A program made the position numbers and the translations under genes. A stretch of DNA of 60,904 nucleotides from a virus: positions 1 to 60,904 of IMG/VR virus record IMGVR_UViG_3300029778_000003; one strand, written 5' to 3'. Each line of letters opens with the position of its first letter. Within the stretch, counting starts at the first letter, position 1. Below the pieces are notes generated by a model. It saw only the letters and a program-made list of their open reading frames with translations, ran no database searches and was not told the origin of the DNA. Shown piece after piece: positions 5,409 through 60,904 of this stretch.

Positions 5409-5419
5409 GGGGCGAGAGT

Positions 5420-6073: not shown

Positions 6074-6080
6074 TTATTAA

Positions 6081-6112
6081 GGCTATGGGTAGTAATGCTC
6101 ATAGCCATTTTT
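6081..6112 (+). terminator. Rho-independent terminator
   Basis: ggctatg-loop-catagcc followed by attttt, 8 nt after the stop at 6073. Confidence 0.7.
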
Positions 6113-6125
6113 AGAGGGTATAAGC

Positions 6126-7292: not shown

Positions 7293-7303
7293 AATACATC
7301 CCC

Positions 7304-7573
7304 CTATCTATAACAAGCCTTAATTATTGGGCTTATATAATTCTCGTGGTTTAAATAATTAGTAAAAGCCATCCGCCGGTATTCCTTGCCACTAATAAGC
7401 GTGGTAATATCGTCACACGTGCCAAAGTCCGCAGCAGTTCTAAAAATATTTGTTATCGCTTTACGTGTGGCGCGCTCGCTTGCCTGATATTCCGGTGCGC
7501 TTTGATATTTGCCGTTGTAGCGTGCTTTTATTTCCATTTCTACAGCATCAAGGCTTTTTAGTTCGTTATCCAT
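7304..7573 (-). CDS. Hypothetical protein (89 aa)
   Basis: ORF track. MDNELKSLDAVEMEIKARYNGKYQSAPEYQ... No family recognised. Confidence 0.55.
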   Translation of the reverse strand: MDNELKSLDAVEMEIKARYNGKYQSAPEYQASERATRKAITNIFRTAADFGTCDDITTLISGKEYRRMAFTNYLNHENYISPIIKACYR

Positions 7574-7942
7574 TCATTAACCCTCTTTTCTGTTTTGGTA
7601 CATGGTTTATAAGCTGTTTTTTTGACCTTTTCGCGGTCTGTCGTGCGTTAATCTGTTTTTATAGGTGCAAAATAACGCAAATCACCTATAAAGGGCACAC
7701 AATTATTTGTTCAGGCGTTGCACCTCTTGAGCCTGATAATAAATATAAAGGCATTTATAAGACCTCTTGGCGCGATTATTTACCGGACGCGCGGACGGAG
7801 TGCAATATATACAGCCGTAAAACTGTATAAAAGCACCTATAAATTAAATACATTAAATTGATAATATAAGACCTGAAAAGCCTTATATATAAAGCTAATG
7901 GCCGGAATTGAACCGGCTTAAAAATCCCTTGATATTAGCTAT

Positions 7943-8035
7943 TTAATAAAAAAATAAAAACAAACCACCATAACCAATAACAAGGCATGACGCAAAAAGC
8001 CCGAAAGCCTTTAAAAGCTCGATTAAATCTCTCAT
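7943..8035 (-). CDS. 30-aa hydrophobic peptide (candidate small membrane toxin, holin-like or exclusion peptide)
   Basis: Hand translation: MRDLIELLKAFGLFASCLVIGYGGLFLFFY. GGGGG SD lies 7 nt upstream; starts 11 nt after the stop of 8047..8415. Confidence 0.45.
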   Translation of the reverse strand: MRDLIELLKAFGLFASCLVIGYGGLFLFFY

Positions 8036-8046
8036 AGTTGCGCCCC

Positions 8047-8415
8047 CTAACAATAACAAAAATCACCTTGTAGCCCGGTTGTAATAATCATTTTCCCATC
8101 CTTACGGCGGTAAACTACACCGCAACCGCCACCACTTAAAGACCATACAAGCCAGCCAGCCGGAGTTATTTTTTTATGCTTCTTATAATCGTAAAAAGCA
8201 TAATGCGGTTTTACCCCCGCTTTTTCCTGTTCAAGTGCATTGTTTATAATTTCATCGTCCGTTAATAACAACGCTTTTCCGTTTTTCTGCCGTCCGTAAT
8301 ATCTCATTTTTACGCCTTTCTGGTCTGCCATCATCAGCACCGGGAGACCGTCCCGCGGTGGACGCTCCAAGTTGGAGCGTTTCGGCTTAAAAATAAATAT
8401 AAAAGCTTTTCCCAT
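8047..8415 (-). CDS. Hypothetical protein (start uncertain; MMADQKG at about 8334 is an alternative)
   Basis: ORF track. C-terminus WLVWSLSGGGCGVVYRRKDGKMIITTGLQGDFCYC. No family recognised. Confidence 0.5.
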   Translation of the reverse strand: MGKAFIFIFKPKRSNLERPPRDGLPVLMMADQKGVKMRYYGRQKNGKALLLTDDEIINNALEQEKAGVKPHYAFYDYKKHKKITPAGWLVWSLSGGGCGVVYRRKDGKMIITTGLQGDFCYC

Positions 8416-8713
8416 TGCTATTCCATTCGCTATCTAATACGGTAACTTTTGAAAGTCTGCCGATGCAACCATAAATCCCGGCGGCGTAATATTCAGAATC
8501 GACCCGACAACCTTTAGCATCGGGAAACTCTTTTTTAATTTCCTGTATAATCTCATTGACTTTGTGACAGCAAACGCCACTTTTTTCGTCGAACGGCTCT
8601 AGCCGTGAGATATAGTTCTCTGCGTTTTCAAAAGTATAGATGTTACAATTTAACTTGATGCCGTTAACCATTTCGCCCATTCTGCAAATTTCCTTGTGTG
8701 ATAATTTTTTCAT
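8387..8713 (-). CDS. Hypothetical Cys-containing protein (108 aa)
   Basis: Start taken at MKKLSHK (aaaggaaag RBS). First gene of the minus-strand block. Confidence 0.5.
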   Translation of the reverse strand: MKKLSHKEICRMGEMVNGIKLNCNIYTFENAENYISRLEPFDEKSGVCCHKVNEIIQEIKKEFPDAKGCRVDSEYYAAGIYGCIGRLSKVTVLDSEWNSNGKSFYIYF

Positions 8714-8749
8714 TTTCTTTTCCTTTTGACTGTGATATAATGCAGTCAC

Positions 8750-9096
8750 CTTTCAATTATTATTTTGTTTGGTGCTCATCGTGTAACTTTGGACGGCTGC
8801 GCGATGAGCTTTTTTATTTTGTTCCTTGCCTTTCGACTTGACTATACAATACTACATTGCAATCTATATGTCAATACTATATTGCAATAAAAATTGAAAA
8901 AATACTAAAATAATTATTTAAATTATTATTTCTACTATATAATGCAATAAATATTACAATATTGTATTGGCGTATTATTGAAATAGTTATTGACATAATA
9001 ATTTAATTATTATATATTTATGTATAGCAATATTGATATATAGTAATATTGTTAGTAACTATTGATATTATTAATTAAAATAATGAGGTGTAATAA
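8750..9096. promoter_or_regulatory. AT-rich divergent control region with repeated (T/A)ATTGCAAT-type motifs and a TTGACA-17-TATATT promoter (8990-9018, + strand)
   Basis: tacattgcaat, tatattgcaat, tataatgcaat, palindrome tacaatattgta. More copies at 9316-9342 just after the RHH gene. Confidence 0.55.
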
Positions 9097-9312
9097 ATGG
9101 ACGAAAAGAAAATTATTGAAAACTATAAAAAAAGAATAAAGCGACAGAATGAAAAAGCCCGGGAAAATTGGGACTCAATAACTTGTAAATTGCCAAAAGG
9201 CACAAAAGACCGGATACAGGCGCAAGGGCTTACAATTAACGGATTTGTAAATCAATTAGTGCTGGACAAGTTGGACGAGCTGGAAAAGAATAACAATGAA
9301 TGTCCATTCTAA
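9097..9312 (+). CDS. Ribbon-helix-helix (Arc/CopG-like) DNA-binding protein
   Basis: SITCKLPKGTKDRIQAQGLTINGFVNQLVLDKLDE has a beta-strand then two-helix pattern. Flanked on both sides by the TTGCAAT-type motifs. Confidence 0.6.
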   Translation: MDEKKIIENYKKRIKRQNEKARENWDSITCKLPKGTKDRIQAQGLTINGFVNQLVLDKLDELEKNNNECPF

Positions 9313-9389
9313 AAATTATTGCAATTATGTATTGCATTTATGTATTTAATGTGCTAATATAATGTCGTAGCAAATAAACAGTTTAATTA

Positions 9390-9578
9390 ATGAGGTGGGA
9401 AAAAGTGAAAAGCTATGATTATATTGTTATCTCCGGTAACAATGAAGAAATTTACAGCACCAAAAAAGAAGTAAACAAAAGAGTTAAGGAGCTAACAAGC
9501 CAAGGAAAAACCGGCTACTTTGCAAAGTGGGACTTAATCAACGATGAAATCCTAGAGGGTAGCCAAGTAGATTTTTAA
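9390..9578 (+). CDS. Small hypothetical protein (GTG 9405 after gaggtgg is an alternative start)
   Basis: ORF track, 62 aa. Confidence 0.5.
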   Translation: MRWEKVKSYDYIVISGNNEEIYSTKKEVNKRVKELTSQGKTGYFAKWDLINDEILEGSQVDF

Positions 9579-9597
9579 AATTGGAGGTATAAAGAGT

Positions 9598-9816
9598 ATG
9601 AAATACAGAATAGTTGACGCAGACAATAGAGCCGAATATAGTAAGCCAAAGACTTTTGAAGAGGTCAAAGCGTGGTTTGAGCCAAACGCAGAGCTTGAAG
9701 AGGAGCATAACAAGTGGGCGAAAATCGAAGATATTGACGACATGAGAGATTATCTCATATGGGAAGCCCAGGGAATGAGACCTAATTGGAAAATAGAGGA
9801 TTGTGAAGAGGATTAA
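9598..9816 (+). CDS. Small strongly acidic hypothetical protein
   Basis: 72 aa, ggaggt RBS. EEVKAWFEPNAELEEEHNKWAKIEDIDDMRDYLIWE..EDCEED. Confidence 0.6.
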   Translation: MKYRIVDADNRAEYSKPKTFEEVKAWFEPNAELEEEHNKWAKIEDIDDMRDYLIWEAQGMRPNWKIEDCEED

Positions 9817-9842
9817 GACGGAAGTTTGAAAGGAGATATACA

Positions 9843-10031
9843 ATGAGCGAAAAAATTAATGATAACATCATGAGTGCAATTGTTGTGCTCATGGACGACG
9901 AGACAAGAGAGCGTGTGCACTTTGAGCTTGCACCCTGCTCAAACGAGAGTTTTTTAAAAAGGTATTGTGAATTAGTGCCAGAGTTTGAAAAGACACTTAA
10001 AGATGAATTTAGCATTGAATTGGATGCATAA
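9843..10031 (+). CDS. Small acidic hypothetical protein
   Basis: 62 aa, aaaggaga RBS. Confidence 0.6.
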   Translation: MSEKINDNIMSAIVVLMDDETRERVHFELAPCSNESFLKRYCELVPEFEKTLKDEFSIELDA

Positions 10032-10053
10032 AAAATTAAATATTGTTTTTCAA

Positions 10054-10080
10054 AGAGTCGTTTTTAAACGGCTCTTTTTA
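10054..10080 (+). terminator. Rho-independent terminator
   Basis: agagtcg-tttttaaa-cggctct then tttt. Confidence 0.65.
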
Positions 10081-10208
10081 TTGCAATTTTTAGGACGTAA
10101 GAACCATGCGACAACTGTACCGGGTATTTCTTTTTTTGAGCCATTCAAGGCTTATTTTTTGCAACTTTAAAATTTATAGAGTGGAAAAATAAACAGAGAA
10201 ATTGATAG

Positions 10209-10288
10209 TTGTATCCAAAATGTATACATCATGTATACAACTTGTATCCAAAATGTATCCGTAGTATAGGTAAGGTTAGGTAAGTATA
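10209..10288. repeat. Iteron-like repeats in an AT-rich intergenic region (candidate second origin or pac-associated site)
   Basis: ttgtatccaaaatgtat at 10209-10225 and 10242-10258. tagtataggtaagg..taagtata at 10262-10288 matches 54054-54075 inside the replisome organiser gene. Confidence 0.6.
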
Positions 10289-10452
10289 TATATTAAATAA
10301 AGCCTAACGGCTTTATAGAAGAGTATATTATTATTAAACCCCTTTATTTTTTATTTATTTATATTAAACAAGAAAATATAATATATAAATATATAATACT
10401 TGATTAAATATATTTAGTTTAATATATACAGCAATAGTATTTTAAAATCTAT

Positions 10453-10481
10453 TTGACAAAATATATTTAGTGGTGTATATT
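10453..10481 (+). promoter_or_regulatory. Sigma-A-type promoter TTGACA-17 nt-TATATT
   Basis: ttgaca 10453-10458 and tatatt 10476-10481, counted by hand. Confidence 0.6.
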
Positions 10482-10546
10482 TACATCAACAATTTAAGCA
10501 CAGAACGTGTTATTGCCAAGCACGAGTGTATATGCGGATGCCGGTT

Positions 10547-10595
10547 AGCCTGTGTCACTTGGAATAATTCCAGGTGGTGCGGGCTTTTTTATTTT
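10547..10595 (+). terminator. Strong strand-specific terminator 20 nt upstream of the terS start
   Basis: 16-bp stem agcctgtgtcacttgg / ccaggtggtgcgggct, with several G-U pairs that form only in the + transcript, then ttttttatttt. Confidence 0.7.
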
Positions 10596-10614
10596 ATGAT
10601 TTTGAGGTGCTAAA

Positions 10615-11277
10615 ATGGAAAAAATTAAAGGAAATATAACTAAACATTTAATTGCCGATTTTGGCACTTTTCAGCTTTACCGCGAGGACTTCGAGAGAGC
10701 TATAGAACAGGCTTGTCAGGAATTGCAAATTGACGATTTGAAAAGCGAGGGTCAAAGGCCGTGGAAAGCTGTTTGTAAGAGAGTCGGAGAGATTATATTT
10801 AATGATAACAGTATATTAAAAGATAAACAGCTATATGATAATACATGTATGTTAACTAACTACAATAGATATAATTATAATATATTAAATAATATATGTG
10901 ATGAATATATATATATTAGTGATAAATATAATAAGCTATGTAGTACGGTTGCATTTAGTAATTGGTGTAATATTGATTGTGGCGTTATAGACAATTGGAG
11001 ACTGAATAAAGAGTCAAGTCCTAAAAGTTATGAGATTTGGGAAAAATTGCAAGGAATCCGCAAGGATTGTATTAAAGATAGGGCATATGACAATAAATCC
11101 CCTGTCGGTGCTATGTTCGTCGGCAACAATGAATTTGGCATGAACCAACCGGGAATTGGCTACGAAGCTACGCAAGCGAGAGCACTAACCGCCAATGAAT
11201 TACCACAGTTGGGCGGTGCAAATAGTCAGACTATTAAAGCATTATCGGATAATAACATGGTTGATAATGCCAAGTAA
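10615..11277 (+). CDS. terS: Terminase small subunit
   Basis: 220 aa. STVAFSNWCNIDCGVIDNWR (HTH-like) and NKSPVGAMFVGNNEFGM resemble the conserved GAIF..KN.FG end of Terminase_2-type small subunits (by eye). Confidence 0.6.
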   Translation: MEKIKGNITKHLIADFGTFQLYREDFERAIEQACQELQIDDLKSEGQRPWKAVCKRVGEIIFNDNSILKDKQLYDNTCMLTNYNRYNYNILNNICDEYIYISDKYNKLCSTVAFSNWCNIDCGVIDNWRLNKESSPKSYEIWEKLQGIRKDCIKDRAYDNKSPVGAMFVGNNEFGMNQPGIGYEATQARALTANELPQLGGANSQTIKALSDNNMVDNAK

Positions 11278-11419
11278 TTGTATATACAACAGATACAATT
11301 CTAAACCCTTTATTTACAAGGCTTTGCAGACTATTGAATTATTACAACTATTCACAAAACAGTTGTTTAGCGAAGAGTTGAAAGCACAGAAGTAAATTGT
11401 ATATGCAATAGATACAATT
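11276..11419. repeat. Two copies of a 25-bp element, each itself an inverted repeat (aattgtat-N9-atacaatt)
   Basis: aattgtatatacaacagatacaatt at 11276-11300 and aattgtatatgcaatagatacaatt at 11395-11419, starting at the terS stop codon. Confidence 0.8.
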
Positions 11420-11685
11420 TAAAATGCTTGATGTTTGAGGGCTGAAAAACGCACGTATTGGGTGCCCTGGGGGTGTATATGAAAAGCGACAAGCTGCCCC
11501 ACTTAGCCCCCAAAATATCCTCAAAAACAAAAAGACTCTTACTCATACCCTAAATCGCGCCAAGCAGTATTTATTATAACATAAGTTATATATTAATTAA
11601 ACAACATACACAATAATAATATATATACATACAACTATGATTAAATATTAGTTATATATAATATATAACAGTAAAGGAGCTAACA

Positions 11686-12138
11686 GTGATGAAATTAACA
11701 GGATTTGAGTCTGATAAAATTAATTCCGATATGGTAAATCACCCTAGCCACTATAACTTGCCTAATCGTAAAGAATGTATTGATGAAATGATTGACATTT
11801 ACGGGCTTAAGGATGTGGCTAAATGGTGTGAAATTACTGCATACAAGTATAAATATCGTGCCGGGCATAAAGGCTCTGTAATTGAGGATATGAGTAAGGC
11901 TGCATGGTACACAATTAAGGCTCATGAGCTTAAATCTAAGCGCAAATGGAAGATTTTCGACAAGATTGTTTATAAATTCATGCCAATGTTTCTTAAGGGC
12001 CTGTATACATGGATAATTTTATTTTGTATGTTTTACGGAATACTCTTTGCTGACCGATGCTCAATGGTAGTCTCAATAGTGTTTTTAGTTCTTGCGTGCA
12101 TAGCTGAGTCGGTATTGAAAGAAAATGAAGATAATTAG
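11686..12138 (+). CDS. DUF3310-like protein with C-terminal membrane segments
   Basis: VNHPSHYN..ECIDEM..AKWCEITAYKYKYRAGHKG is the signature I associate with the DUF3310 phage family. The hydrophobic tail is unusual. Confidence 0.6.
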   Translation: MMKLTGFESDKINSDMVNHPSHYNLPNRKECIDEMIDIYGLKDVAKWCEITAYKYKYRAGHKGSVIEDMSKAAWYTIKAHELKSKRKWKIFDKIVYKFMPMFLKGLYTWIILFCMFYGILFADRCSMVVSIVFLVLACIAESVLKENEDN

Positions 12139-13980: not shown

Positions 13981-14445
13981 ATGACAGTAAAAGATTTATT
14001 TAATTCAAAAAACACACTGCAAGTAGATATTGGATTAGCAGAACAAATAGGATTACACAATTCAGTAGTCTATACAGAAATCAAAAAGGCTAAAAAAGAA
14101 AACAACATTGATTTGTTTAATAAACAGGATTTAGTTTTTGTTCAAAAGAAGTATTTACCATTCTTTTCGATAAAAACAATACAAAGGTCTTTAGAGTTTC
14201 TTATTGATAAAGGTTATATAACAGCAGATAAGATAAAACCGGAAGAAGCAAAAGAAATTGTTTTAAAAAACAAACATAATTGCAAGTTTAAATGCGAATG
14301 GTGTGGTTGTGGTTGCAATGTTATAAACGAACACCATTATCCAATACCAAAATCAATGGGCGGAACAAAAATTGTAAGGATATGTCCTAATTGTCATTAT
14401 GAATTTCATTCTTTATACAAAATCAGTAGAAAGGATGGTGTTTAA
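13981..14445 (+). CDS. HNH endonuclease with N-terminal winged-helix-like domain
   Basis: C-terminal CEWCGCGCNVINEHHYPIPKSMGGTKIVRICPNCHYEFH (HNH with two CxxC pairs). aggaggt RBS. Confidence 0.75.
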   Translation: MTVKDLFNSKNTLQVDIGLAEQIGLHNSVVYTEIKKAKKENNIDLFNKQDLVFVQKKYLPFFSIKTIQRSLEFLIDKGYITADKIKPEEAKEIVLKNKHNCKFKCEWCGCGCNVINEHHYPIPKSMGGTKIVRICPNCHYEFHSLYKISRKDGV

Positions 14446-14446
14446 T

Positions 14447-15487
14447 ATGGCGGAAGTTAGAATTAAAAAGGCTGTAATCAGAGAAGATTTATTATCAATA
14501 ACAAACGATTATAGAAAGGCAATTATCCTCAATCAATTCATTTATTGGTCTGAAAGAGTTTCAGATGCCGATAAGTTTATCAAGAAAGAAAATGAGATTG
14601 CGAAGAACAATGGAGAAGAAGGGAGAGAGCTTTTCTATGGTTGGATATATAAAACAGCCGAAGAATTAGCCGATGAGGTTATGTTAGGTTTATCTGCAAG
14701 TCAGATAAGAAGATATATCAGTGATTTGGTAAATATGGGTTATATCTCAAAGCGAAATAACCCTAAATATAAATGGGATAGAACATTGCAATATAGAGTA
14801 AATCTTGTAAATATTGCAAAAGACCTTAAAAAGAATGGCTATCCATTAAGCGATTACAAAATTGAAATACCGGAAAATGAAAAATTCAATGCGCATGAGT
14901 GCGCAATCAATAATGAGCCAATGGAAAATCAAACACAAGTCAGTGACGAAGCAATACCAAAGAGCACTAACATAGATTACTTAAACAGAGATTATGATTC
15001 AGAGATTACAAGAGAGGTACATACATCAACTAACATTGATGGAGAGGTACATACATCTGTTTCCGAGAAACAGACGGCAAGAGTCACCCGACAGGATATG
15101 CAAGCAAAGAAAGATGATATGTTCAATAGATTCTCTGAAATCTGTGACAACAGCATTGAAAATAAGACAGTCGGAGAAGTAGTCAAAAAAGCATTTTGTA
15201 GATACATGAACCTGTATGAAACATATTTTGCAAAGGTTCACCCAATCTTGACCGATAAAACTCTGACTAATGTATGCCTGTCACTTTCTAATGTGACCGA
15301 TACGGAGCATAATCACTTTGAGTGGACAGATGTTTACCTAGCAGACGAAACAGGGCTTACTGGGCTTGATAGAATGGTTAACGAGCATTTCAGACGAACA
15401 CATAGAAGAGAGACTAACTACTCGATAACGCATTTTGCCAAAAGCGACTATCTGCTACAGTTGGCACAAGGCATTATAGAGTATTAA
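14447..15487 (+). CDS. Hypothetical protein with N-terminal winged-helix-like region (possible DNA-binding or replication-related)
   Basis: ATG 14447 just after the upstream stop. LSASQIRRYISDLVNMGYISKRNN wHTH-like. Internal direct repeat gaggtacatacatc x2 (15014-15057) encodes EVHTS x2. Confidence 0.6.
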   Translation: MAEVRIKKAVIREDLLSITNDYRKAIILNQFIYWSERVSDADKFIKKENEIAKNNGEEGRELFYGWIYKTAEELADEVMLGLSASQIRRYISDLVNMGYISKRNNPKYKWDRTLQYRVNLVNIAKDLKKNGYPLSDYKIEIPENEKFNAHECAINNEPMENQTQVSDEAIPKSTNIDYLNRDYDSEITREVHTSTNIDGEVHTSVSEKQTARVTRQDMQAKKDDMFNRFSEICDNSIENKTVGEVVKKAFCRYMNLYETYFAKVHPILTDKTLTNVCLSLSNVTDTEHNHFEWTDVYLADETGLTGLDRMVNEHFRRTHRRETNYSITHFAKSDYLLQLAQGIIEY

Positions 15488-17018: not shown

Positions 17019-17201
17019 ATGAAAATAATTAAAAAGGGTGATTTGAACATAGCCAAAAAACCACTAAGATTTAAATGCAAGAATTGTTGGACGATTTTTG
17101 AAGCGATTGAAGAAGAATATATATACTGTGGCGACCAACGAGAGGGCGATAACTGGAAGTGCGAATGTCCTTTGTGCCACAAAATGGTTTATTACAGCTA
17201 A
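17019..17201 (+). CDS. Small zinc-ribbon protein
   Basis: MKIIKKGDL..FKCKNCWTIF...WKCECPLCHKMVY. Start moved to the ATG after gagggga. Confidence 0.5.
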   Translation: MKIIKKGDLNIAKKPLRFKCKNCWTIFEAIEEEYIYCGDQREGDNWKCECPLCHKMVYYS

Positions 17202-17241
17202 AATAATGATTGCTGATTATCAACAGAAAGGGGAACATATT

Positions 17242-18450
17242 ATGGCTGATTTGAAAATATTTACAGAAAATATAGAACATGAAGCATTAAATCAGATATA
17301 TACGCTTGTAAAACAGCCGGCATTTTCGGATTGCAAGATAAGAATTATGCCAGATGTTCACGCGGGAGCAGGGTGTGTTATAGGATTTACTGCTGATTTA
17401 GGAGAAAAAGTAATACCGAACATTGTTGGAGTTGACATAGGCTGTGGGATGCTTACTACAAACTTGGGGAATATTGATATTGATTTTGAGAAATTAGATA
17501 ACGTCATTAGAGAATATGTTCCAAGTGGTAGAAGGGTTCATGAAGAAGAAAACTCATCTGTCGCAAGCGATATTATTGAAAAATTGTATTGCAAGGAACA
17601 GTTGAAAAATATAGATTGGCTGAAAAGAAGTTGCGGCACGTTGGGAGGCGGCAATCATTTTATCGAAGTTGATAGCGATAGCAAGAATAATAAATATCTT
17701 GTTATTCATTCGGGAAGTAGAAATGTCGGAAAGCAAGTCGCAGAAATATATCAGCAAATGGCGATTGCTGATATTTCGGGAAAATCGAATTTTAAACAAG
17801 ACAGTGAGAAATTGATTGCTGAATACAAAAAATGTAAAAGAGAAAGAGAAATCAGCAAGGCTATTAAAGAATTAAAGCAGTCCTACGAAAAAAATACAAC
17901 TAAAATCCCTAGAGAGTTATCATATCTTGTTGGGAAACATAGAGAAATGTATTTACACGATATGAAATTATGCCAAGAGTTTGCGGAAATTAACAGAAGA
18001 GCCATTCAGAGCATTATTTGCTACTATATGGGTTGGAACGTTACAAAAGAAACGGAGCGATTTCAAACGATTCACAACTACATTGAACACGATACAAATA
18101 TTGTCCGTAAAGGTGCTATTTCTGCAAAAGCGGGGGAAAAAGTACTAATACCAATAAACATGCGTGACGGTTGCATTTTGGGAATTGGCAAGGGAAATGA
18201 AGACTGGAATTATTCAGCACCGCATGGAGCGGGGCGAACTATGAGTAGGTCAAAGGCAAAAGAAAGCATTTTGCTAGAAGAGTATCAAAAAGCAATGGAC
18301 GGAATATTTACAACATCTGTAAATACATCCACGATTGATGAAAGCCCTATGGCATATAAAACAATGGATGAAATAATTGGACATATAAAAGATACCGTTG
18401 AAATAGTTGACATTATAAAACCGATTTACAATTTCAAAGCAAACGAATAA
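17242..18450 (+). CDS. rtcB: RtcB-family RNA 3'-phosphate ligase
   Basis: MPDVHAGAGCVIGFT, GGGNHFIEV, IHSGSRNVGKQVA, PHGAGR are the metal- and GMP-binding motifs of RtcB. ATG 17242 preferred over the ORF-track start. Confidence 0.92.
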   Translation: MADLKIFTENIEHEALNQIYTLVKQPAFSDCKIRIMPDVHAGAGCVIGFTADLGEKVIPNIVGVDIGCGMLTTNLGNIDIDFEKLDNVIREYVPSGRRVHEEENSSVASDIIEKLYCKEQLKNIDWLKRSCGTLGGGNHFIEVDSDSKNNKYLVIHSGSRNVGKQVAEIYQQMAIADISGKSNFKQDSEKLIAEYKKCKREREISKAIKELKQSYEKNTTKIPRELSYLVGKHREMYLHDMKLCQEFAEINRRAIQSIICYYMGWNVTKETERFQTIHNYIEHDTNIVRKGAISAKAGEKVLIPINMRDGCILGIGKGNEDWNYSAPHGAGRTMSRSKAKESILLEEYQKAMDGIFTTSVNTSTIDESPMAYKTMDEIIGHIKDTVEIVDIIKPIYNFKANE

Positions 18451-37459: not shown

Positions 37460-38953
37460 ATGGCAATTCAAATGAGACGAGGGGCATACGCGGAGTTTGA
37501 CCCCTTAAAAATGAAAGCCGGAGAATGGGCGGTATCGACCGATTCCGACACGAAAAAACAGCAGATATGGATGTGTTTTGCACCCGGAATAGTTAAGCGA
37601 ATGGGAACTGTTGAGGATTTTGACGTTGAAATTCAAAGACTTATTCAGAGTTACCTTGACGGCATGGCTCAATCCGTGTCACAGGCTCAAAAATCAGCAC
37701 AAACTGCGACAGAAAAAGCCAACTCAGCAAGCAGTTCTGCTTCACAAGCTCAAAAATCGGCAGAACTTGCCACAAGCAAAGCTCAAGAATCAGCTACTTC
37801 TGCAAACAATGCTAAGGCAAGCGAAACAAAAGCCAAGGCTTCTGAAACCAATGCTAGGACAAGTGAGGACAGTGCGTCTATCTCTGCACGTAACGCTAAG
37901 ACAAGCGAAACAAATTCTAAGGCCAGTGAAACTAATGCTAAGAAATCAGAGGCTAATGCGTCTACAAGCGCAGCTAACGCAAAAAACAGTGAAACTAATG
38001 CCAAGGCTTCTGCTACTAGCGCGTCAACTTCTGCAAACAATGCTAAGGCAAGCGAAACAAAAGCCAAGGCTTCTGAAACCAATGCTAGGACAAGTGAGAC
38101 TAACTCTGCAAAGAGCGAGTCGGAAGCGCAAAAGTACGCAGAACAAGCCAAAGAAATATCTGAGAGCTTAAGTGGAGCATTAAGACCTCTTGGAACAATT
38201 AACTTTGCCGACTTACCGAGCACAGCGAATGCCACTTCCGGTGATATGTACAACATAGCCGACCAATTTACCACAACCACTGGTTTTAAAGAGGGGGCCG
38301 GTAATATAATCCCCGCCGGCAGTAATGTATATCTGACAATCGACAGATATTGGGATGTGCTTGCCGGCACACCGGTAACAGGAGTAAAAGGCGCAAAAGA
38401 AGCTTATTATCGCAGAGGAAATGTAAACATAACTCCTGCCAATATCGGAGCGGTTGCAGAAGGTGGAAATATAAGCGATACAACAGTTACTTTTGCCGCT
38501 ACAACAACTAGAGCAAACCTTGTTTCTGGTGAAAAAGTGTCGGTCGGCTTCGGAAAAATTAAGAAGTGGTTCGCTGATTTGAAAAGCTTTGCCTTTAAAG
38601 ATTTGGCGAATAACCTCACGACTTCTACCACTGGAAACGCATTAGACGCGAGTCAAGGCAAGATTTTGAATGACAAATACGATGAATTAAACCAGAGTTT
38701 AGGTAATATGCATTTGGTTCATTTAGAAAGTCAACGAATTAATGGAGTAGGATATTCATTTGTATATATTGGCTATAAAACTGGATACAGACTTATAAAT
38801 GTTATAGTTAATTATAATACTTCTAGCAAAGGAAATTATCGAATAAATACAATTCAATATGACGATACAAATAAAGTGTATGTGGTATATATAAATCAAA
38901 CACTTGCATCAGGTAGTTATTTGCTTGCCGATTTAATATATATGTCTGAATAA
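37460..38953 (+). CDS. Tail fibre with Ser/Ala/Thr/Asn/Glu-rich repeat shaft and C-terminal variable domain
   Basis: 497 aa. (A/T)SETNAKAS heptad-like repeats. Exact 72-bp direct repeat 37796-37867 = 38027-38098. C-terminal 83 aa follow the LNQSL junction. Confidence 0.8.
   Translation: MAIQMRRGAYAEFDPLKMKAGEWAVSTDSDTKKQQIWMCFAPGIVKRMGTVEDFDVEIQRLIQSYLDGMAQSVSQAQKSAQTATEKANSASSSASQAQKSAELATSKAQESATSANNAKASETKAKASETNARTSEDSASISARNAKTSETNSKASETNAKKSEANASTSAANAKNSETNAKASATSASTSANNAKASETKAKASETNARTSETNSAKSESEAQKYAEQAKEISESLSGALRPLGTINFADLPSTANATSGDMYNIADQFTTTTGFKEGAGNIIPAGSNVYLTIDRYWDVLAGTPVTGVKGAKEAYYRRGNVNITPANIGAVAEGGNISDTTVTFAATTTRANLVSGEKVSVGFGKIKKWFADLKSFAFKDLANNLTTSTTGNALDASQGKILNDKYDELNQSLGNMHLVHLESQRINGVGYSFVYIGYKTGYRLINVIVNYNTSSKGNYRINTIQYDDTNKVYVVYINQTLASGSYLLADLIYMSE
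38687..38702. repeat. Left inverted repeat / putative crossover site within the tail fibre gene
   Basis: ttaaaccagagtttag. 15 of 16 nt are the reverse complement of 39375-39390. Encodes LNQSL. Confidence 0.85.
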
Positions 38954-39048
38954 TTTTTATTTCTTACTAAATATATGATACATTTGTAAAAGTTAATATT
39001 TAGTTACTCCTATTTACTAAAGAGATATTGGTTTACAATTGGATTTGT

Positions 39049-39417
39049 TTAAGATATAGGTGTTGGAATTACTGAATTTTCAATATATGAATTAAAATAT
39101 AAGCATGTAATCGATAATCTTACTCTTATACCAGCATTACTAACGTTTTTCATCTGAATTCCTACCCCTGACGAAGCATATATCATACTATACACAAAAG
39201 CATTAGAATAACCGCCACCGTTTGTAGTTGCATTCCAAAAAGACGTATTTACTATTATTCTAGTGTAGCCTTTTACTGATTTAAATTTAGTATATTCAAC
39301 CTGAGTAGTTCCGTTAGCCCCAATATATATATTATCAATTGTTTCATTTACAGCTACAATAGTAAATTTTTTATCTAAACTCTGGTTTAGCAGACTATCA
39401 CAAATAGGATTTTGCAC
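39049..39417 (-). CDS. Silent alternative tail-fibre C-terminal cassette (no ATG, no SD)
   Basis: The ORF opens with GTG and has no purine-rich SD. After 9 codons it reads LNQSL, identical in sequence and codon phase to the fibre junction, then 108 aa of beta-rich sequence. Confidence 0.65.
   Translation of the reverse strand: MQNPICDSLLNQSLDKKFTIVAVNETIDNIYIGANGTTQVEYTKFKSVKGYTRIIVNTSFWNATTNGGGYSNAFVYSMIYASSGVGIQMKNVSNAGIRVRLSITCLYFNSYIENSVIPTPIS
39375..39390. repeat. Right inverted repeat / putative crossover site (dyad CTAAAC-TCTG-GTTTAG)
   Basis: ctaaactctggtttag. Internal 6-bp arms are perfectly symmetric around a 4-bp asymmetric spacer. Confidence 0.85.
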
Positions 39418-39646
39418 ATAAAAAGAGAGAGCATAAGCCCTCTCGATTATTTTACAGGAATAGGGTTACAAAACAGTCCATATTGTCAATATTCGACAAA
39501 AATAAAACACTTTAAAGTGCTACAGTAATGATGTTCTCAAACAAGAGAACTCTTCAAGTTTCGGTAGGGCGGTGGATTATTCTGCCGTCCTTATTGACGT
39601 TTAAGAACAAATGTTCTATAATGGATGTATCGGAGGTAGTGTTGTA

Positions 39647-39754
39647 TGGAATATAAGGATGAAATAAAGAAACTAATTGATAGCATTGAAAATGAAAAAC
39701 TACTCGACTTTTTGCTAGGCTTCATAAAGTCGGCAATTAAGCGGTGGGGATAAA
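39647..39754 (+). CDS. Small hypothetical protein (35 aa)
   Basis: cggaggt RBS. MEYKDEIKKLIDSIENEKLLDFLLGFIKSAIKRWG. Confidence 0.35.
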
Positions 39755-39781
39755 AAATAGAGGTAGGAAAAACCTACCTCT
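39752..39781 (-). terminator. Terminator for the leftward immunity operon
   Basis: Perfect 9-bp stem agaggtagg/cctacctct with loop aaaaa. The A-run on the + strand gives a U-run on the minus transcript. Confidence 0.7.
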
Positions 39782-39792
39782 GCAAAAAAGAT

Positions 39793-40125
39793 TTATCTGA
39801 AACGATTACCACAATTCAAACAGATAAACTCGTCAACGGCATATCCGCTTCTTGCCTTTTTCACAACCTTTTCTTTTTTATTAACAAGTGTAAAAGGTCG
39901 GAGCGGATTTAGATTTGCCGTATACCTAGTTTTCGTCTTTTCAGGACGAGCACCATAAATTTGTTGACCGGCATACTGAAAATGCGTCGAGCCACAATAC
40001 GGACAACACTTCTGTCCTTGTTCATTATACGTGGTATTTCCATTATTACTACTATCTATATCTGCTAATTTTTCAAGTAAAACAATCAATCCCACAACCA
40101 TAATAACCATAAGTATTACATACAT
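39793..40125 (-). CDS. Membrane-anchored zinc-ribbon protein co-transcribed with the repressor
   Basis: N-terminal TM MYVILMVIMVVGLIVLL. CPYCGS...CLNCGN zinc ribbon. Confidence 0.6.
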   Translation of the reverse strand: MYVILMVIMVVGLIVLLEKLADIDSSNNGNTTYNEQGQKCCPYCGSTHFQYAGQQIYGARPEKTKTRYTANLNPLRPFTLVNKKEKVVKKARSGYAVDEFICLNCGNRFR

Positions 40126-40137
40126 AATAAATCCCCC

Positions 40138-40452
40138 TTATTTTAAATTTCTCAAAATCTGCATTATAGCTTTCTGACTATCTTCTGATAGCTTTGAGTA
40201 TAACTCTATAAGCTCGGTATATGTGTCCGATAGCTCGGAGCTTGGGGCAGATGTCTTTGCACCGTCCATTAAATATCCGGGGCTTAAATCAAGCACACCA
40301 CATATTAATTCTACTGTGTCCATGTCAGGTTTGGACTTATCTTTTTCCCAATCACTAATTGAATTATGTTTTGCGTTTATTAATTCTGCAAGTTGTCTTT
40401 GAGTGTAGTGCTTAGAAATCCTTGCAGTTTTTATTTTCTCACCAAAAGTCAT
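40138..40452 (-). CDS. XRE-family (cI-like) repressor, short form without peptidase domain
   Basis: FGEKIKTARISKHYTQRQLAELINAKHNSISDWEKDKSKPDMDTVELICGVLDLSPGYL. 104 aa. Confidence 0.88.
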   Translation of the reverse strand: MTFGEKIKTARISKHYTQRQLAELINAKHNSISDWEKDKSKPDMDTVELICGVLDLSPGYLMDGAKTSAPSSELSDTYTELIELYSKLSEDSQKAIMQILRNLK

Positions 40453-40478
40453 ATATGAATACCTCCTTTCTAATATTG

Positions 40479-40590
40479 ATAATAATATAAAAATTTCGGA
40501 TAGTCAAGAAAAAAATTTCGGATAAACCGAAAAAAGTTCTTGACATTCGGATAAACCGAAACTATAATACAATTGTTCGGTAAAACCGAA
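40479..40590. promoter_or_regulatory. Immunity switch: divergent promoters and three TTCGG-N5-CCGAA operators
   Basis: Operators at 40517-40531, 40546-40560 and 40576-40590 (plus a half-site at 40495). Rightward TTGACA 40540-45 / TATAAT 40563-68. Leftward TTGACT (rc of 40502-07) / TATTAT (rc of 40479-84). Confidence 0.8.
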
Positions 40591-40614
40591 ACAAAACAGA
40601 AAGGAGAAAAGAAT

Positions 40615-40830
40615 ATGTGCGTAGGACAGAAAATTAAAACTTATTTAGAGGACAACGGCATTACGCAGACTTTTGTTGCTAGTAAGACAGGTATTCCTGT
40701 TCAGAAGCTGAATTTATCACTCAATGGCAACAGAAGATTAGACTTCAACGAGTATGAGTTAATCTGCGGAGCATTATCAGTTGGTGCGGATAAGTTTTTG
40801 GAGCCAAAGACTTTAGAGAGAAAGGAGTAG
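40615..40830 (+). CDS. Cro-like XRE-family HTH protein
   Basis: ATG 40615 after aaaggaga. VGQKIKTYLEDNGITQTFVASKTGIPVQKLNLSLNG. Confidence 0.8.
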   Translation: MCVGQKIKTYLEDNGITQTFVASKTGIPVQKLNLSLNGNRRLDFNEYELICGALSVGADKFLEPKTLERKE

Positions 40831-40832
40831 GA

Positions 40833-41030
40833 ATGAGGTTGTTCGTGAGAAAAGAAATGCTCAACACATTAAAAAGCATTGACAGTACTTTAAAACGTAT
40901 TGAGCAATCCATAAACAATGATGAGAAACATCACCTTAATATTTGCAATGCTGTTTCTCATGCACTGAAAGGTGAAAGATATACACCTATTCAGTCAGAT
41001 GATTTAGTGCAAACTGATAAGCAGATTTAA
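40833..41030 (+). CDS. Small hypothetical protein
   Basis: 65 aa ORF directly after cro. Confidence 0.5.
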   Translation: MRLFVRKEMLNTLKSIDSTLKRIEQSINNDEKHHLNICNAVSHALKGERYTPIQSDDLVQTDKQI

Positions 41031-41160
41031 GATACTGAATTTCCTCAACAGACATTTCAGTATTGCCACACATTACGGCACTACGGCTGTCTATTTGGTA
41101 TTCGGCTAACTTTGAATTTGCATATACGATTGCTAAATCATGAATTTCATCATGAGTCAT
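40987..41160 (-). CDS. Small protein (57 aa) divergent from the antirepressor gene
   Basis: Strong aaggaggtg RBS (rc of 41165-41173) then MTHDEIHDLAIVYANSKLAEYQ... The 138-aa ORF-track version lacks an RBS. Its 3' end overlaps 40833..41030 by 44 nt. Confidence 0.55.
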   Translation of the reverse strand: MTHDEIHDLAIVYANSKLAEYQIDSRSAVMCGNTEMSVEEIQYLKSAYQFALNHLTE

Positions 41161-41215
41161 TTGTTTCACCTCCTTATTATCTAATGAGGAGATTATACCA
41201 CAGAAAGGAGAAAAC

Positions 41216-41938
41216 ATGAACGATTTACAAATTTTCAACAATGAAGAGTTTGGAGAAGTCCGAACAGCGGTAATAAATGATGAACCTATGTTTTGCTTGG
41301 CTGATATATGCAGAGTGCTAGAAATCAAAAATGTTTCTGATTGCAAAAGCAGATTAAGACAAAAGGGTATAGTTACTACCGATACCCTTACAAATGGCGG
41401 CAAGCAGAAGATGATTTTTATTGACGAAAGTAATCTTTACAAGACAATCTTTCAGAGCCGTAAAGAAAGCGCAGAGAGATTTACAGAATGGGTTACATCA
41501 GAGGTACTTCCGTCAATCAGAAAAACAGGCAGTTATGGTATGCCAAAGACAACAGGCGGTCAGATACAGCTTTTGGCACAAGGCTATACAGAATTAGAGC
41601 AGAAAGTAAACGACATCAAAGATGATGTGAGCGAGCTTAAGGAAAATGTACCACTTTACAGTTGCGATATTGACGAGATACAACAGCATGTTAAGCGCAG
41701 AGTTGTAAATATCCTCGGTGGCAAGCAGAGCGAAGCATACAGGGATAACAGTATCAGACATAAGACATTTTCTGATATATGGACACAGTTAAAGCGTGAG
41801 TATGGTTGCGTATCTACTTATAAGAGTATCAAGAGAAAGTATATAGACGATGTGCATGAGTTTATTGATTGCTATGTCGTGCCTAAATATCTTGATGAGC
41901 TTATTCAGGACGCAAACGCTCAACAGAGTTTTGCATAG
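41216..41938 (+). CDS. Antirepressor (BRO-N domain plus C-terminal Ant/ORF6C-like domain)
   Basis: LQIFNNEEFGEVRTAVINDEPMFCLADICRVLEI is a BRO-N signature. Confidence 0.85.
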   Translation: MNDLQIFNNEEFGEVRTAVINDEPMFCLADICRVLEIKNVSDCKSRLRQKGIVTTDTLTNGGKQKMIFIDESNLYKTIFQSRKESAERFTEWVTSEVLPSIRKTGSYGMPKTTGGQIQLLAQGYTELEQKVNDIKDDVSELKENVPLYSCDIDEIQQHVKRRVVNILGGKQSEAYRDNSIRHKTFSDIWTQLKREYGCVSTYKSIKRKYIDDVHEFIDCYVVPKYLDELIQDANAQQSFA

Positions 41939-41950
41939 TGAGGTGATTGT

Positions 41951-42232
41951 ATGAGAAAAAGAACTCTAAAGCAAAAATTCTATACCGGTTGTGGCTATTC
42001 GATTTTCGGGGTGTTGGCGTTCACTTTTTTTCTTGGATTATCGGTGGCATACGGAATTAAGGCGGCGAGTATTATCGTTGGAGCAATCGTAACAGTATTT
42101 TGGCTGATACTGATTGCAATATGTCTCATAGAGGAGGGCGAACCGCATGAGAAAAAGAAACCTGATGTTGATGTTATTAATTTCAACAATTGGAATTATG
42201 ACCTTAAAGCCAATAGTAGCGAAAGCAGATAG
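41951..42232 (+). CDS. Small membrane protein
   Basis: Two TM segments (SIFGVLAFTFFLGLSVAY, IIVGAIVTVFWLILIAICLI). Confidence 0.5.
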   Translation: MRKRTLKQKFYTGCGYSIFGVLAFTFFLGLSVAYGIKAASIIVGAIVTVFWLILIAICLIEEGEPHEKKKPDVDVINFNNWNYDLKANSSESR

Positions 42233-42650
42233 CAAAATTGAGCTGACAGCCGGTGTTTCTTCCTATTTAAATGATGTAATGCTAGGGAAGATTGAGCCAA
42301 CAGTAATTCAGAATGAGCCGGTTGTAGTTGAGCAGACCTATGTAGAACCAACAGTTCCAACTTGCCACAAGAAGTACAGTTGTAGCCGATTTAGGAAGCT
42401 AGGGCGAGTCCGATATGGTGATTACACTTATACGTGGTACTCACAGAGAGTGTTACCTGGAGGCGGTTTGAATATCCCAGGCAGACATTTAAACGAGCAC
42501 GGATTAGTAGTTGATGAAAACGAATACGTTGTAATTGCAAGTGATGATTTACCACATGGAGTTGTGGTCGATACTCCTGTTGGCATACAAGGAATTGTAT
42601 ATGACGAGGGGAGCGGAAATGGAAATCTTGACATCTACTGCGATTGGTAG
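42147..42650 (+). CDS. Secreted protein with C-terminal 3D/DPBB-like domain (cell-wall-active candidate)
   Basis: Signal peptide MRKRNLMLMLLISTIGIMTLKPIVAKA. C-terminal GIQGIVYDEGSGNGNLDIYCDW resembles the 3D-domain end motif. Confidence 0.6.
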   Translation: MRKRNLMLMLLISTIGIMTLKPIVAKADSKIELTAGVSSYLNDVMLGKIEPTVIQNEPVVVEQTYVEPTVPTCHKKYSCSRFRKLGRVRYGDYTYTWYSQRVLPGGGLNIPGRHLNEHGLVVDENEYVVIASDDLPHGVVVDTPVGIQGIVYDEGSGNGNLDIYCDW

Positions 42651-42789
42651 CCAATTGAAACGTCAGAGTGCTAACGATTACCTACAAGAATTATATCGAG
42701 CTAAGCGGCACAAGGACAAATCGTTTGACTTTCAAGCGTTACTAGATAAAGAAATGGAGAAGCTAAATGAGCAGTGTAAGACGAATTAG
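42619..42789 (+). CDS. Small hypothetical protein
   Basis: Internal ATG of ORF 42535..42789 chosen after ggggagcgg. Low support. Confidence 0.35.
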   Translation: MEILTSTAIGSQLKRQSANDYLQELYRAKRHKDKSFDFQALLDKEMEKLNEQCKTN

Positions 42790-53637: not shown

Positions 53638-54423
53638 ATGGCAGAACGTAGAATGTTCACAAAAAAAGTCACTGATGATGATAATTTCATGGCTTTATCA
53701 TCAAGTGCGCAAGCCTTATATTTGCATTTATCTATGTCTGCTGATGATGACGGATTTTGCAATCAGGTATCAGTTTCCATGTTCAAAGCTCACGCAAGTG
53801 TGGCTGATTTACAGCAACTATTGGAAAAAAGATACATTTATCAGTTTGATAATGGTGTGATTGTAATTAAGCATTGGCGCATGGCAAACGCTTTGAGAAA
53901 AGACCGGTATACACCAACGAATTTTAAGGAAGAATTGGCAAAATTAAAGATAAAATCCAATGGTGCATACACATTTTCTGATGATGGTTGCCATGTGGTT
54001 GCCAATAGGTTGCCGGATGGTTGCCATGTGGTTGCCACTTGTCTGCCACAGGATAGTATAGGTAAGGTAAGTATAGATAAGAATAGTATAGTTAAGGATA
54101 GTAAAGATAAGGATATAAAAGAAAAAGATATTGATAAATCAATATCTAAAAAGAAAACTGTTTACTACCCTGATGATGCAATGCTAGAGAGTGCTTTTCA
54201 GGAATATCTGACAATGCGAAAAAAAATAAAAAAGCCAATATGTACCGAAATGGCATTACACCGAGCTATGAACACTATCGAGAGGCTTTCAAAGGGTGAT
54301 AACGATTTGGCTGTTAAAATCCTTAATCAGTCAGTAGACCATTGTTGGCAAGGACTGTTTGCACTAAAGGACAATGAGCCACATTCAGCTAACAAAGGTG
54401 CTATTGATTGGGATAATGTGTGA
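53638..54423 (+). CDS. Replication initiator / replisome organiser (SPP1 G38P-like, DnaD-like)
   Basis: MAERRMFTKKVTDDDNFMALSSSAQALYLHLSMSADDDGFC is the N-terminal signature of Firmicute phage replisome organisers. The gene contains iterons. Confidence 0.75.
   Translation: MAERRMFTKKVTDDDNFMALSSSAQALYLHLSMSADDDGFCNQVSVSMFKAHASVADLQQLLEKRYIYQFDNGVIVIKHWRMANALRKDRYTPTNFKEELAKLKIKSNGAYTFSDDGCHVVANRLPDGCHVVATCLPQDSIGKVSIDKNSIVKDSKDKDIKEKDIDKSISKKKTVYYPDDAMLESAFQEYLTMRKKIKKPICTEMALHRAMNTIERLSKGDNDLAVKILNQSVDHCWQGLFALKDNEPHSANKGAIDWDNV
53983..54130. repeat. Intragenic iterons: putative origin of replication
   Basis: gatggttgccatgtggttgcca x2 (53983-54004, 54015-54036), then tagtataggtaagg / taagtata / atagtatag / gataag-type short repeats. 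Confidence 0.65.
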
Positions 54424-59640: not shown

Positions 59641-60597
<957 letters not shown>

Positions 60598-60627
<30 letters not shown>

Positions 60628-60709: not shown

Positions 60710-60801
60710 CAGATGCTATCGGAATAGTGCTTTTTGAAAGCAAAAAATTCGGTGGCGAAAAGGTACTTAGGGGGGGGGATTTGCCCTACCCTAAGAGCCA
60801 A
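60697..60801 (+). CDS. C5 methyltransferase fragment (third frame segment) ending after the G9 tract
   Basis: MEKLTDAIGIVLFESKKFGGEKVLRGGDLPYPKSQ stop. With G9 read as G8 it would read VLRGGICPTLRANKTSSGVIEV... Confidence 0.5.
60770..60778 (+). repeat. Homopolymeric G9 tract inside the C5 methyltransferase gene
   Basis: cttaGGGGGGGGGattt, counted by hand. Confidence 0.9.
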
Positions 60802-60904
60802 TAAAACAAGTAGCGGAGTGATTGAAGTAATGGTAGATGTAAATGTAATAGGCTCTCTTGAATCAAAATTTGAGAGTACCAACAGAATTTATGATGTGGG
60901 GGGG
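60782..60904. repeat. Second copy of the terminal overlap (equals 1-123)
   Basis: Identical by direct comparison. The window ends inside the poly-G run. Confidence 0.93.

Follow-up and report, generated by a model that had tools for sequence, protein, structure and literature searches.

A putative orphan fibre-tip inversion unit in a temperate phage, with a candidate recombinase encoded by other prophages

Can a phage switch the receptor-binding tip of its tail fibre when the sites for the switch are in place and its own genome holds no invertase gene? This question is raised by positions 38688–39389 of the viral record IMGVR_UViG_3300029778_000003 from IMG/VR, a stretch of 60,904 nt that was analysed over its whole length and is called the window here. 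In this segment the 3′ end of a tail-fibre gene faces a silent open reading frame (ORF) on the opposite strand, the two being bounded by short inverted repeats read in the same codon phase. Another phage has a nearly identical segment, known from it in either orientation and lying beside a dedicated tyrosine recombinase. We therefore read 38688–39389, with a probability of about 0.6, as an orphan two-tip unit of a tyrosine-recombinase tip shufflon, which would be switchable only in trans and is largely locked.

The unit and its immediate surroundings contain the following features, A denoting the expressed tip and E the silent one:

37460..38686, plus strand: constant part of the fibre, 409 N-terminal codons, an Ala/Ser/Glu-rich repeat shaft with a Phage_fiber_rpt motif, ending ...KYDE
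38688..38706, plus strand: left site, the 15-nt core TAAACCAGAGTTTAG followed by GTAA, encoding (L)NQSL-G in frame within the fibre gene
38702..38953, plus strand: expressed tip A, 83 codons and a stop codon, GNMHLVHLESQ...LIYMSE
38954..39048, no strand: AT-rich spacer of 95 bp, separating the two convergent tip cassettes within the invertible segment
39049..39375, minus strand: silent tip E cassette, 108 codons and a stop codon, DKKFTIVAVNE...VIPTPIS, in frame with the right core
39371..39389, minus strand: right site with the inverted core, reading TAAACCAGAGTTTAG followed by ATAA on the minus strand and the dyad CTAAAC-TCTG-GTTTAG on the plus strand
39415..39444, no strand: intrinsic terminator acting in both directions, immediately beyond the right site

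The tail fibre (37460–38953, plus strand, 497 aa) is the last gene of the late operon; it matches PHROG tail-fibre families and carries the Pfam family PF22337 (Phage_fiber_rpt) at residues 384–411. An earlier interpretation of this DNA, termed here the sequence-only reading, had found LNQSL in this ORF, followed by 83 residues, and had noted that the same 15 nt, TAAACCAGAGTTTAG, recur in inverted orientation and in the same codon phase. Both statements are correct: LNQSL occupies residues 410–414, and the copies lie at 38688–38702 on the plus strand, within fibre codons 410–415, and at 39375–39389 on the minus strand, and the dyad CTAAAC-TCTG-GTTTAG was found at 39375–39390. The inverted repeat extends to 19 nt (38688–38706 versus 39371–39389) with one mismatch, hence 95% complementarity, and this pair is the best inverted repeat in a 4-kb region. 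When up to two mismatches are allowed, the core has exactly two copies in the 60.9 kb, as compared with a mean of 0.18 in shuffled sequences and two hits in none of 100 shuffles; even at three mismatches a third credible copy is absent from the genome, and nothing core-like occurs near int. As had been predicted, flipping the 672 bp between the cores (38703–39374) would yield a 522-aa fusion with a new tip of 108 aa. LNQSL ends the Phage_fiber_rpt motif, so that part of its amino-acid conservation is structural.

Evidence that such a segment inverts comes from a module in another Agathobacter prophage. Window positions 38683–39390 are 95% identical over 708 nt to the module of contig L171 and match that of contig L168 on the opposite strand, the homology stopping at the cores (right end 39390). 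Contigs L168–L170 and L171 represent the same phage from different samples, as testified by flanks that are 98–99% identical, and a 702-nt inter-core segment, itself 98.7% identical, is inverted between them. The forward and reverse alignments of L168 and L171 overlap by exactly the 19-nt repeat, with the breakpoints inside the repeat. In L168 the shaft of this phage (shaft2) is joined to an expressed tip E and tip A is silent, and in L171 the same shaft is joined to an expressed tip A and tip E is silent. Both orientations recur in many contigs, the flank with the leader MFLKAMFL having A or E in its silent slot. The inter-core segment is thus a real invertible module, as the sequence-only reading had supposed, in that a 95%-identical copy occurs in both orientations (L168–L170 versus L171). 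The left window site is identical over 19 nt to its counterpart in the inverting module, and in the core and on the inner side both window sites agree with the functional sites of L168. These L168 sites have dissimilar outer flanks; since such flanks are not conserved among functional sites, the window sites are plausible substrates.

Directly to the right of the L168/L171 module lies an intact gene for a 348-aa recombinase with Phage_int_SAM_4 and Phage_integrase domains. The protein is XerA/C/D-like, scores below every NCBIfam cut-off, has no arm-binding domain and possesses, by inspection, all the R-K-H-R-H-Y catalytic-residue motifs. Two further sites and two further cassettes follow beyond the recombinase gene, giving a four-site, four-cassette shufflon in L168. 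The flipping relatives carry this armless recombinase besides an integrase. Similar arrangements were found elsewhere: in L154 a 307-aa XerD-like recombinase lies inside an array of 14 CAGTAATTTAGG copies that alternate in orientation (0 of 200 shuffles), in L156 a homologous recombinase stands beside three ATTATGCCAGAGTTTA sites, and L149 and L152 contain decayed versions of recombinase and site array. The L154 array (5300–11900), in which CAGTAATTTAGG encodes ..SNLG, is a far larger fibre-tip shufflon with a recombinase of the same subfamily. The homologue in L155 was rejected as a site-array enzyme; its neighbours are genes for a repressor and an excisionase, and no array of sites is evident around it. 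From its position, the neighbouring recombinase is the probable catalyst of the inversion, and it may be able to act in trans on the window sites. Its protein cluster includes WP_306785012.1 of Agathobacter rectalis, and the gene occurs on several hundred contigs, which reach 3.76 Mb; the 90% cluster of the window fibre includes WP_308793957.1 of Agathobacter sp. The two phages thus apparently share a host genus, which makes a supply of the recombinase in trans conceivable.

The window itself has no such gene. Its ends are identical (1–123 = 60782–60904, 100% over 123 bp), so the window represents an entire phage genome, closed into a circle of about 60.8 kb. The sole recombinase in it is a Tn916-type Int (1667–2854), accompanied by a Tn916-type Xis (1114–1578). 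Searches for a serine invertase by tblastn with Hin and the gamma-delta resolvase gave a best E of 0.83, corresponding to a helix-turn-helix (HTH) stretch, and none of the 40 window ORFs scanned had a Pfam Resolvase match. A second tyrosine recombinase was likewise absent according to Pfam on 40 ORFs, PHROGs on 20 and tblastn with shufflon recombinases; in tblastn of the queries P0024, P0026, P0030, P0032 and P0033 against the whole 60.8-kb circular genome, the Tn916-type Int alone was matched. The sequence-only reading, in which an invertase gene was missing and the Tn916-type Int was the one recombinase, agrees in this respect with tblastn, Pfam and PHROG alike. With the module present and its recombinase gene absent, the module is an orphan in this phage.

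The opposed ORF has the composition attributed to it by the sequence-only reading. It covers 39049–39417 on the minus strand (122 codons), lies 95 bp past the fibre stop codon and has neither ATG nor Shine-Dalgarno sequence, a GTG being its lone in-frame start. Nine codons (MQNPICDSL) precede LNQSL, which is encoded by the same 15 nt as in the fibre gene and is followed by DKKF...; the tip E cassette proper has no ATG, Shine-Dalgarno sequence or promoter. The predicted beta-rich character of the alternative tip is consistent with an AlphaFold2 model, which is all-beta with six strands (predicted local distance difference test, pLDDT, 73.5). A search of 5.8 billion protein clusters retrieved E-type tips, 87–90% identical, as the C-termini of expressed proteins (P0002–P0006, P0008 and P0010). 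They sit on three different N-terminal parts, and their identity to tip E begins exactly at NQSL; they include a 165-aa protein encoded just 5′ of holin and amidase genes (L145) and proteins of 183 and 186 aa (in L168 and L149). These comparisons support tip E as a real alternative fibre tip. Tip A, for its part, is also expressed on two other shafts, in proteins of 125 and 158 aa, and is a silent cassette in recombinase-bearing prophages. Tip E has no match in Pfam, PHROG or NCBIfam, and none by blastn or tblastn among 50,697 records of cultured phages, in which the fibre region found shaft-repeat similarity and one Roseburia phage fragment alone. Searching the PDB with the tip E sequence gave nothing meaningful, and Foldseek with the tip E model gave no PDB match at E <0.001; its weak similarities were to the R-pyocin fibre-foot, lectin and jelly-roll beta-sandwiches.

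The shaft of the fibre shows periodic repeats of 21/42 nt (37796–38098), with two perfect 72-nt copies (37796–37867 and 38027–38098). Among relatives with the window shaft, length ranges from 480 to 537 aa, which suggests repeat expansion and contraction.

Tip E is also shielded by the terminator outside the right site. On the minus strand its stem (39444–39425) is followed by the T-tract TTTTTATGTG, ending exactly at the GTG, so that read-in transcription is expected to be blocked and the cassette to be silent. On the plus strand the stem (39427–39444) is followed by GATTATTTTA. Judged from these elements, the terminator is predicted to keep transcription of the minus-strand repressor operon out of the silent cassette, and also to end the late (fibre) transcript. 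The outer flank with the terminator is kept in relatives bearing different cassettes. The nine leader codons correspond to translated flank: MQNPICDSL, MFLKAMFL and MYSQSL vary with the flank while the tip is constant. A caution is in order for annotation pipelines, by which silent cassettes are now called small hypothetical proteins.

The proposed mechanism can be formulated as follows. The unit would belong to a family of tail-fibre-tip shufflons that appears common in prophages of Agathobacter (Eubacterium rectale group), and would consist of two convergent receptor-binding tip cassettes placed between inverted 19-bp sites that encode an in-frame LNQSL. At present the reading frame of the fibre gene continues across the left site into tip A, which is thus expressed, and tip E, antisense, without a start codon and shielded by the terminator, is silent. 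Recombination at both sites would flip the 672 bp and join the same shaft to tip E, and this tip swap would presumably change receptor specificity, the tips being the probable determinants of host range. The cognate enzyme would be the 348-aa armless XerC/D-like tyrosine recombinase that stands beside the same module elsewhere, and switching of the window phage would require this recombinase in trans, e.g., from a co-resident prophage of the same host. A wider version may be put forward tentatively, as possible rather than probable: tips would form a shared currency, unrelated Agathobacter phages, differing in shaft and integrase, carrying two-tip modules with one universal LNQSL site, and the recombinase of some prophages flipping orphans in trans on co-resident phages and exchanging cassettes site-specifically between phage genomes. 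If this is true, the host range of one phage would be controlled by the enzyme of another.

When IMG/VR, metagenome contigs and GTDB genomes were scanned by DNA pattern, about 90 related loci were obtained, the scan of GTDB representative genomes giving almost only chance hits. The sequence-only reading had proposed to look in related phages for this junction with other cassettes, and such phages do join other cassettes there: KYD/GE-LNQSL is continued by no fewer than 14 unrelated tip families. The listed members of the 90%-identity protein cluster of the fibre share the shaft and end in tips A, B or tip 6. In many of the related loci an opposed in-frame cassette runs from an inverted core beside the same terminator-containing flank, and the intact cassettes found in the window-type silent slot are of at least six kinds (E, D, B′, K, B and GNIID). 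Tips B, C and GNIID are each expressed in some contigs and silent in others, and a B/X two-tip segment is reverse-complemented in L031 relative to L002, the right flank keeping its orientation. The six or more intact silent cassettes, together with one tip pair in both orientations, indicate continuing site-bounded rearrangement in the lineage. Decay is also found in the silent slot: a truncated cassette of 50 aa occurs in all 27 of the 27 SFK/DNT loci, in which the core has mostly changed from CAG to CAA, stubs of 14–15 aa occur in L008, L059 and L136, L002 has a stop codon within a degenerate core, and some relatives have no cassette at all. In the loci retrieved by protein (L145, L149 and L168–L171), N-Q-S-L is encoded by AAC CAG AGT TTA, as in the window; other relatives have variants, among them CAA, CGA, LNQSV and SNL.

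The same core is present in phages with unrelated integrases: L106 has a large serine integrase, and L152 has another Int. The unrelated phage L106 (2600–3790 and 5529–6896), with its large serine integrase, encodes a fibre of 248 aa, ...FDELNQSL..., and beyond it an opposed ORF of 138 codons with HNQSL, i.e., the same core and logic in another genomic background. In L152/L153 (6557–6612) the core is tandemly triplicated in frame (LNQSV-TT-LNQSV-TE-LNQSL) within a tip-B gene adjoining a 227-aa recombinase ORF; this triplication could be the footprint of aberrant recombination. A serine invertase was absent from the 92 related loci searched by tblastn with Hin and the gamma-delta resolvase. The serine recombinase of L127 was rejected as an invertase, as it belongs to an IS607-family TnpA/TnpB insertion (3574–5335); this element, with a MerR-like TnpA and TnpB, is inserted into the early region of L127, which is closely related to the window phage. 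Similarly, an insert of about 930 bp beside the terminator in L017, of like size in L003 and L015, was rejected as a recombinase gene, since in L017 it encodes a 293-aa membrane protein. This gene (8353–9234) lies beside the module, with the terminator on one side and the remainder of the right flank on the other, and L003 and L015 have a gap of about 0.9–1 kb at the same position; the L017 gene is possibly a moron or serves in superinfection exclusion.

The window phage itself has been seen in one orientation. All 16 of the 16 window-type A/E contigs, six obtained by DNA-pattern scans (the window included) and ten by exact protein look-up, are A-ON, i.e., express tip A, and in the sampled populations this phage is essentially locked in that state. 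The silent 122-aa ORF is indexed in 261 sample blocks. The opposite, E-ON state was found in no contig or protein for the window phage: exact look-up of the predicted 522-aa fusion and of seven variants of the predicted flipped silent-A ORF gave nothing among 15 billion proteins, and a search of cluster representatives found no silent-A ORF with a window-type leader. These look-ups cover exact matches or cluster representatives in consensus assemblies, so that rare or minority flips would be missed. The query with the chimeric shaft+E protein was run against representatives alone, and fibres with different tips share one 90% cluster; being inconclusive by itself, it was complemented by the exact look-ups and the search for the predicted silent-A ORF. 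Tip A has at least five variants among contigs with identical tip E, a varied A and a static E being expected if A alone is exposed to selection. The ratio of nonsynonymous to synonymous substitution rates (dN/dS) is about 1.2–1.6 for silent and expressed tips alike, with very few substitutions, and fails to separate the used from the unused cassette. The uniform A-ON state weighs against a unit that still switches. The catalytic role proposed for the neighbouring recombinase is read from gene neighbourhood, and the apparent sharing of a host is at the level of the genus.

The same observations would fit a dead relic, in which the module was inherited or captured from a recombinase-bearing phage and never inverts, tip E being a fossil and at most raw material when homologous recombination occasionally takes place with co-infecting phages. 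We regard this as rather unlikely, while granting it appreciable weight: A-ON is the one state seen, tip A diversifies while tip E is static, the silent slot is decayed in many relatives (SFK/DNT in 27 of 27, L008, L059/L136 and L002) and other relatives have no cassette. Against a relic, however, both 19-nt window sites are intact and identical to functional ones, the cassette keeps all of its 108 codons open in AT-rich DNA and is 87–90% identical to expressed tips, and the lineage holds at least six families of intact silent cassettes and one tip pair in both orientations. That the minus-strand ORF is instead an independent gene, for a chaperone or a virion protein, and that the shared 15 nt represent a conserved fibre motif, is scarcely credible. 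Gene callers do predict the 122-aa ORF from the GTG, and the end of the Phage_fiber_rpt motif at LNQSL makes the conservation partly structural; yet the GTG lies within the terminator T-tract and has no Shine-Dalgarno sequence, the leader codons change with the flank and the tip does not, and identity to expressed proteins starts precisely at NQSL. Moreover, the codons AAC CAG AGT TTA are the same in the protein-retrieved loci, with variants in others, and the homologous module physically inverts.

As regards the catalyst, the sequence-only reading had considered, as unusual, the Tn916-type integrase or a host enzyme, and no support was found for either of these or for a Hin/Gin-like enzyme; the enzyme beside the module in relatives is an armless, XerC/D-like tyrosine recombinase of another subfamily. 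Inversion by the phage's own Int (1667–2854) and Xis (1114–1578) is very improbable. Int is the lone recombinase of the genome and belongs to the tyrosine superfamily like the shufflon enzyme, to which its similarity is weak (E 2e-5 to 1e-3), but it has the arm-binding N-terminal domain typical of integrases (Pfam), and no core-like sequence lies near int or elsewhere, so that the core-type site is not shared with the phage attachment (attP) region. Furthermore, phages whose integrases are unrelated (the large serine integrase of L106 and the other Int of L152) contain this core and module, the flipping relatives have the dedicated armless recombinase in addition to an integrase, and an active Int should give mixed orientations in lysogens, none of which were seen. 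A Hin/Gin-type serine invertase encoded by the host or a plasmid is an extremely improbable agent. In a 12-2-12 reading the window site becomes nnnnnnTAAACC-AG-AGTTTAnnnnnn, and its central AG is asymmetric, as inversion needs, AA being found there in most decayed relatives. Comparison of Mu gix (TTATCCAAAACC-TC-GGTTTACAGGAA) with the window site (ATGAATTAAACC-AG-AGTTTAGGTAAT) reveals a shared inner AAACC..GTTTA (AAACC-NN-nGTTTA), but the outer half-sites are unlike those of gix. No serine invertase occurs in the window or in the 92 related loci, the IS607 TnpA of L127 excepted, the segment has no chaperone (U-like) genes, and the enzyme standing beside the same sites is a tyrosine recombinase.

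Inversion of fibre genes is classical in phages: the G segment of Mu, the C segment of P1 and the Min system of p15B are switched by the serine invertases Gin, Cin and Min. They share with the window a constant fibre N-terminus, a crossover site within the gene, an opposed silent C-terminus and the host-range switch logic proposed here, and differ from it by the serine invertase, by the U/U′ chaperone genes in the segment and by a length of 3 kb versus 0.7 kb; between the window sites there are two tip ends and the 95-bp spacer alone, with no U/U′ chaperone gene. The likeness to Mu G, P1 C and shufflons drawn by the sequence-only reading stands for the logic of the fibre switch; the resemblance to gix is limited to the inner AAACC..GTTTA, and a serine invertase is absent. 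In the R64 shufflon, the tyrosine recombinase Rci acts on sfx sites, conserved on one side, and swaps the C-termini of the adhesin PilV. Multi-site arrays are common to R64 and the relatives (14 sites in L154, four in L168), whereas R64 targets the tip of a conjugative pilus and uses another site sequence, and the window has two sites and no Rci-type recombinase.

The Rin shufflon of Bifidobacterium prophages is a tyrosine-recombinase system for receptor-binding proteins (RBPs) (Mavrich et al. 2018, Sci Rep, PMC6109161). Rin and the window have in common a Gram-positive gut host, a temperate phage and an RBP whose constant N-terminus is fused in frame, through a short repeated site, to its C-terminal part. 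With the Agathobacter family as a whole, Rin shares promoterless C-terminal cassettes of about 95–130 aa and an inversion inferred from variants with breakpoints in the sites (prophage/virion variants for Rin), and with the relatives L168, L154 and L156 an adjacent armless XerD-like tyrosine recombinase separate from the phage integrase. Unlike Rin, the present system has a Bacillota host (Agathobacter), the site TAAACCAGAGTTTAG encoding LNQSL instead of the 11-bp rix TTCCCTAACCC, and convergent two-tip units with the recombinase between units, the window itself having no recombinase. In the Bifidobacterium phages 689b-1/Bb423phi2, a segment of about 500–700 bp is inverted at a short repeat and has no recombinase on its flanks; an invertase working in trans was proposed for it (PMC6109161). 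Like the window, this locus combines the 3′ end of a structural gene with a small opposed gene; its genes have no recognisable function and the paper names no candidate enzyme, whereas the window tips are fibre tips and a candidate recombinase was found in another prophage of the same host genus. Conversely, the 689b-1/Bb423phi2 segment is inverted between relatives and the window phage has been seen in one orientation. In systematic surveys, tail fibres are among the targets of gene-altering inversions, and loci with no nearby recombinase were noted (PMC9881135). Such a system in phages of Agathobacter or Lachnospiraceae was not found in the literature searched; queries linking rectale, prophage and shufflon retrieved nothing, and those combining inverton or invertible with tail fibre gave general work only. 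What is new here is the LNQSL site, the recombinase subfamily, the modular two-tip unit and an orphan copy with its likely enzyme on another prophage of the same host.

Several other parts of the window genome were recorded alongside the unit. In 38954–42700 no holin or endolysin comes after the fibre gene, the lysogeny module being the next element, and a 167-aa ORF (42147–42650) has no Pfam match. Between the divergent HTH genes (40138–40452, minus strand, and 40573–40830, plus strand), the palindromic TTCGGATAAACCGAAA is present at 40484–40591 in 3–4 copies spaced by about 29–30 bp, adjoining a perfect sigma-70-like promoter (40540–40568); these copies are probably operators of the lysogeny switch. 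The Xis/Int region (1047–2854) is located amid the other genes of the map, some 22 kb away from the repressor/antirepressor region (40.1–41.9 kb), and there are two separate DnaD/O-like replication-initiator genes (14399–15487 and 53638–54423); the position of Int/Xis and the two DnaD/O-like genes may reflect an embedded mobile element or a mosaic origin. An RtcB-like RNA (tRNA-splicing) ligase of 450 aa is encoded at 17098–18450, just 5′ of the structural genes (PHROG 1075, E 2.5e-128). A C-5 cytosine methylase is apparently split into two ORFs, 59641–60627 and 77–799, across the artificial ends of the window, the N-terminal ORF matching profile positions 2–227 and the C-terminal ORF positions 236–322.

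In the human gut, Agathobacter rectalis ranks with the most abundant bacteria, and the two phages are both very common. A tyrosine-recombinase tip shufflon in phages of Lachnospiraceae would be a third, independent example of programmed host-range switching beside the Mu-type systems and the Rin shufflon of Bifidobacterium, one for which sites, cassettes and a candidate enzyme have been defined. Sites and cassettes that are the same whether the recombinase is present or absent would constitute a natural experiment on what share of the host-range plasticity of gut phages is programmed and on how prophages may interact through shared recombinases.

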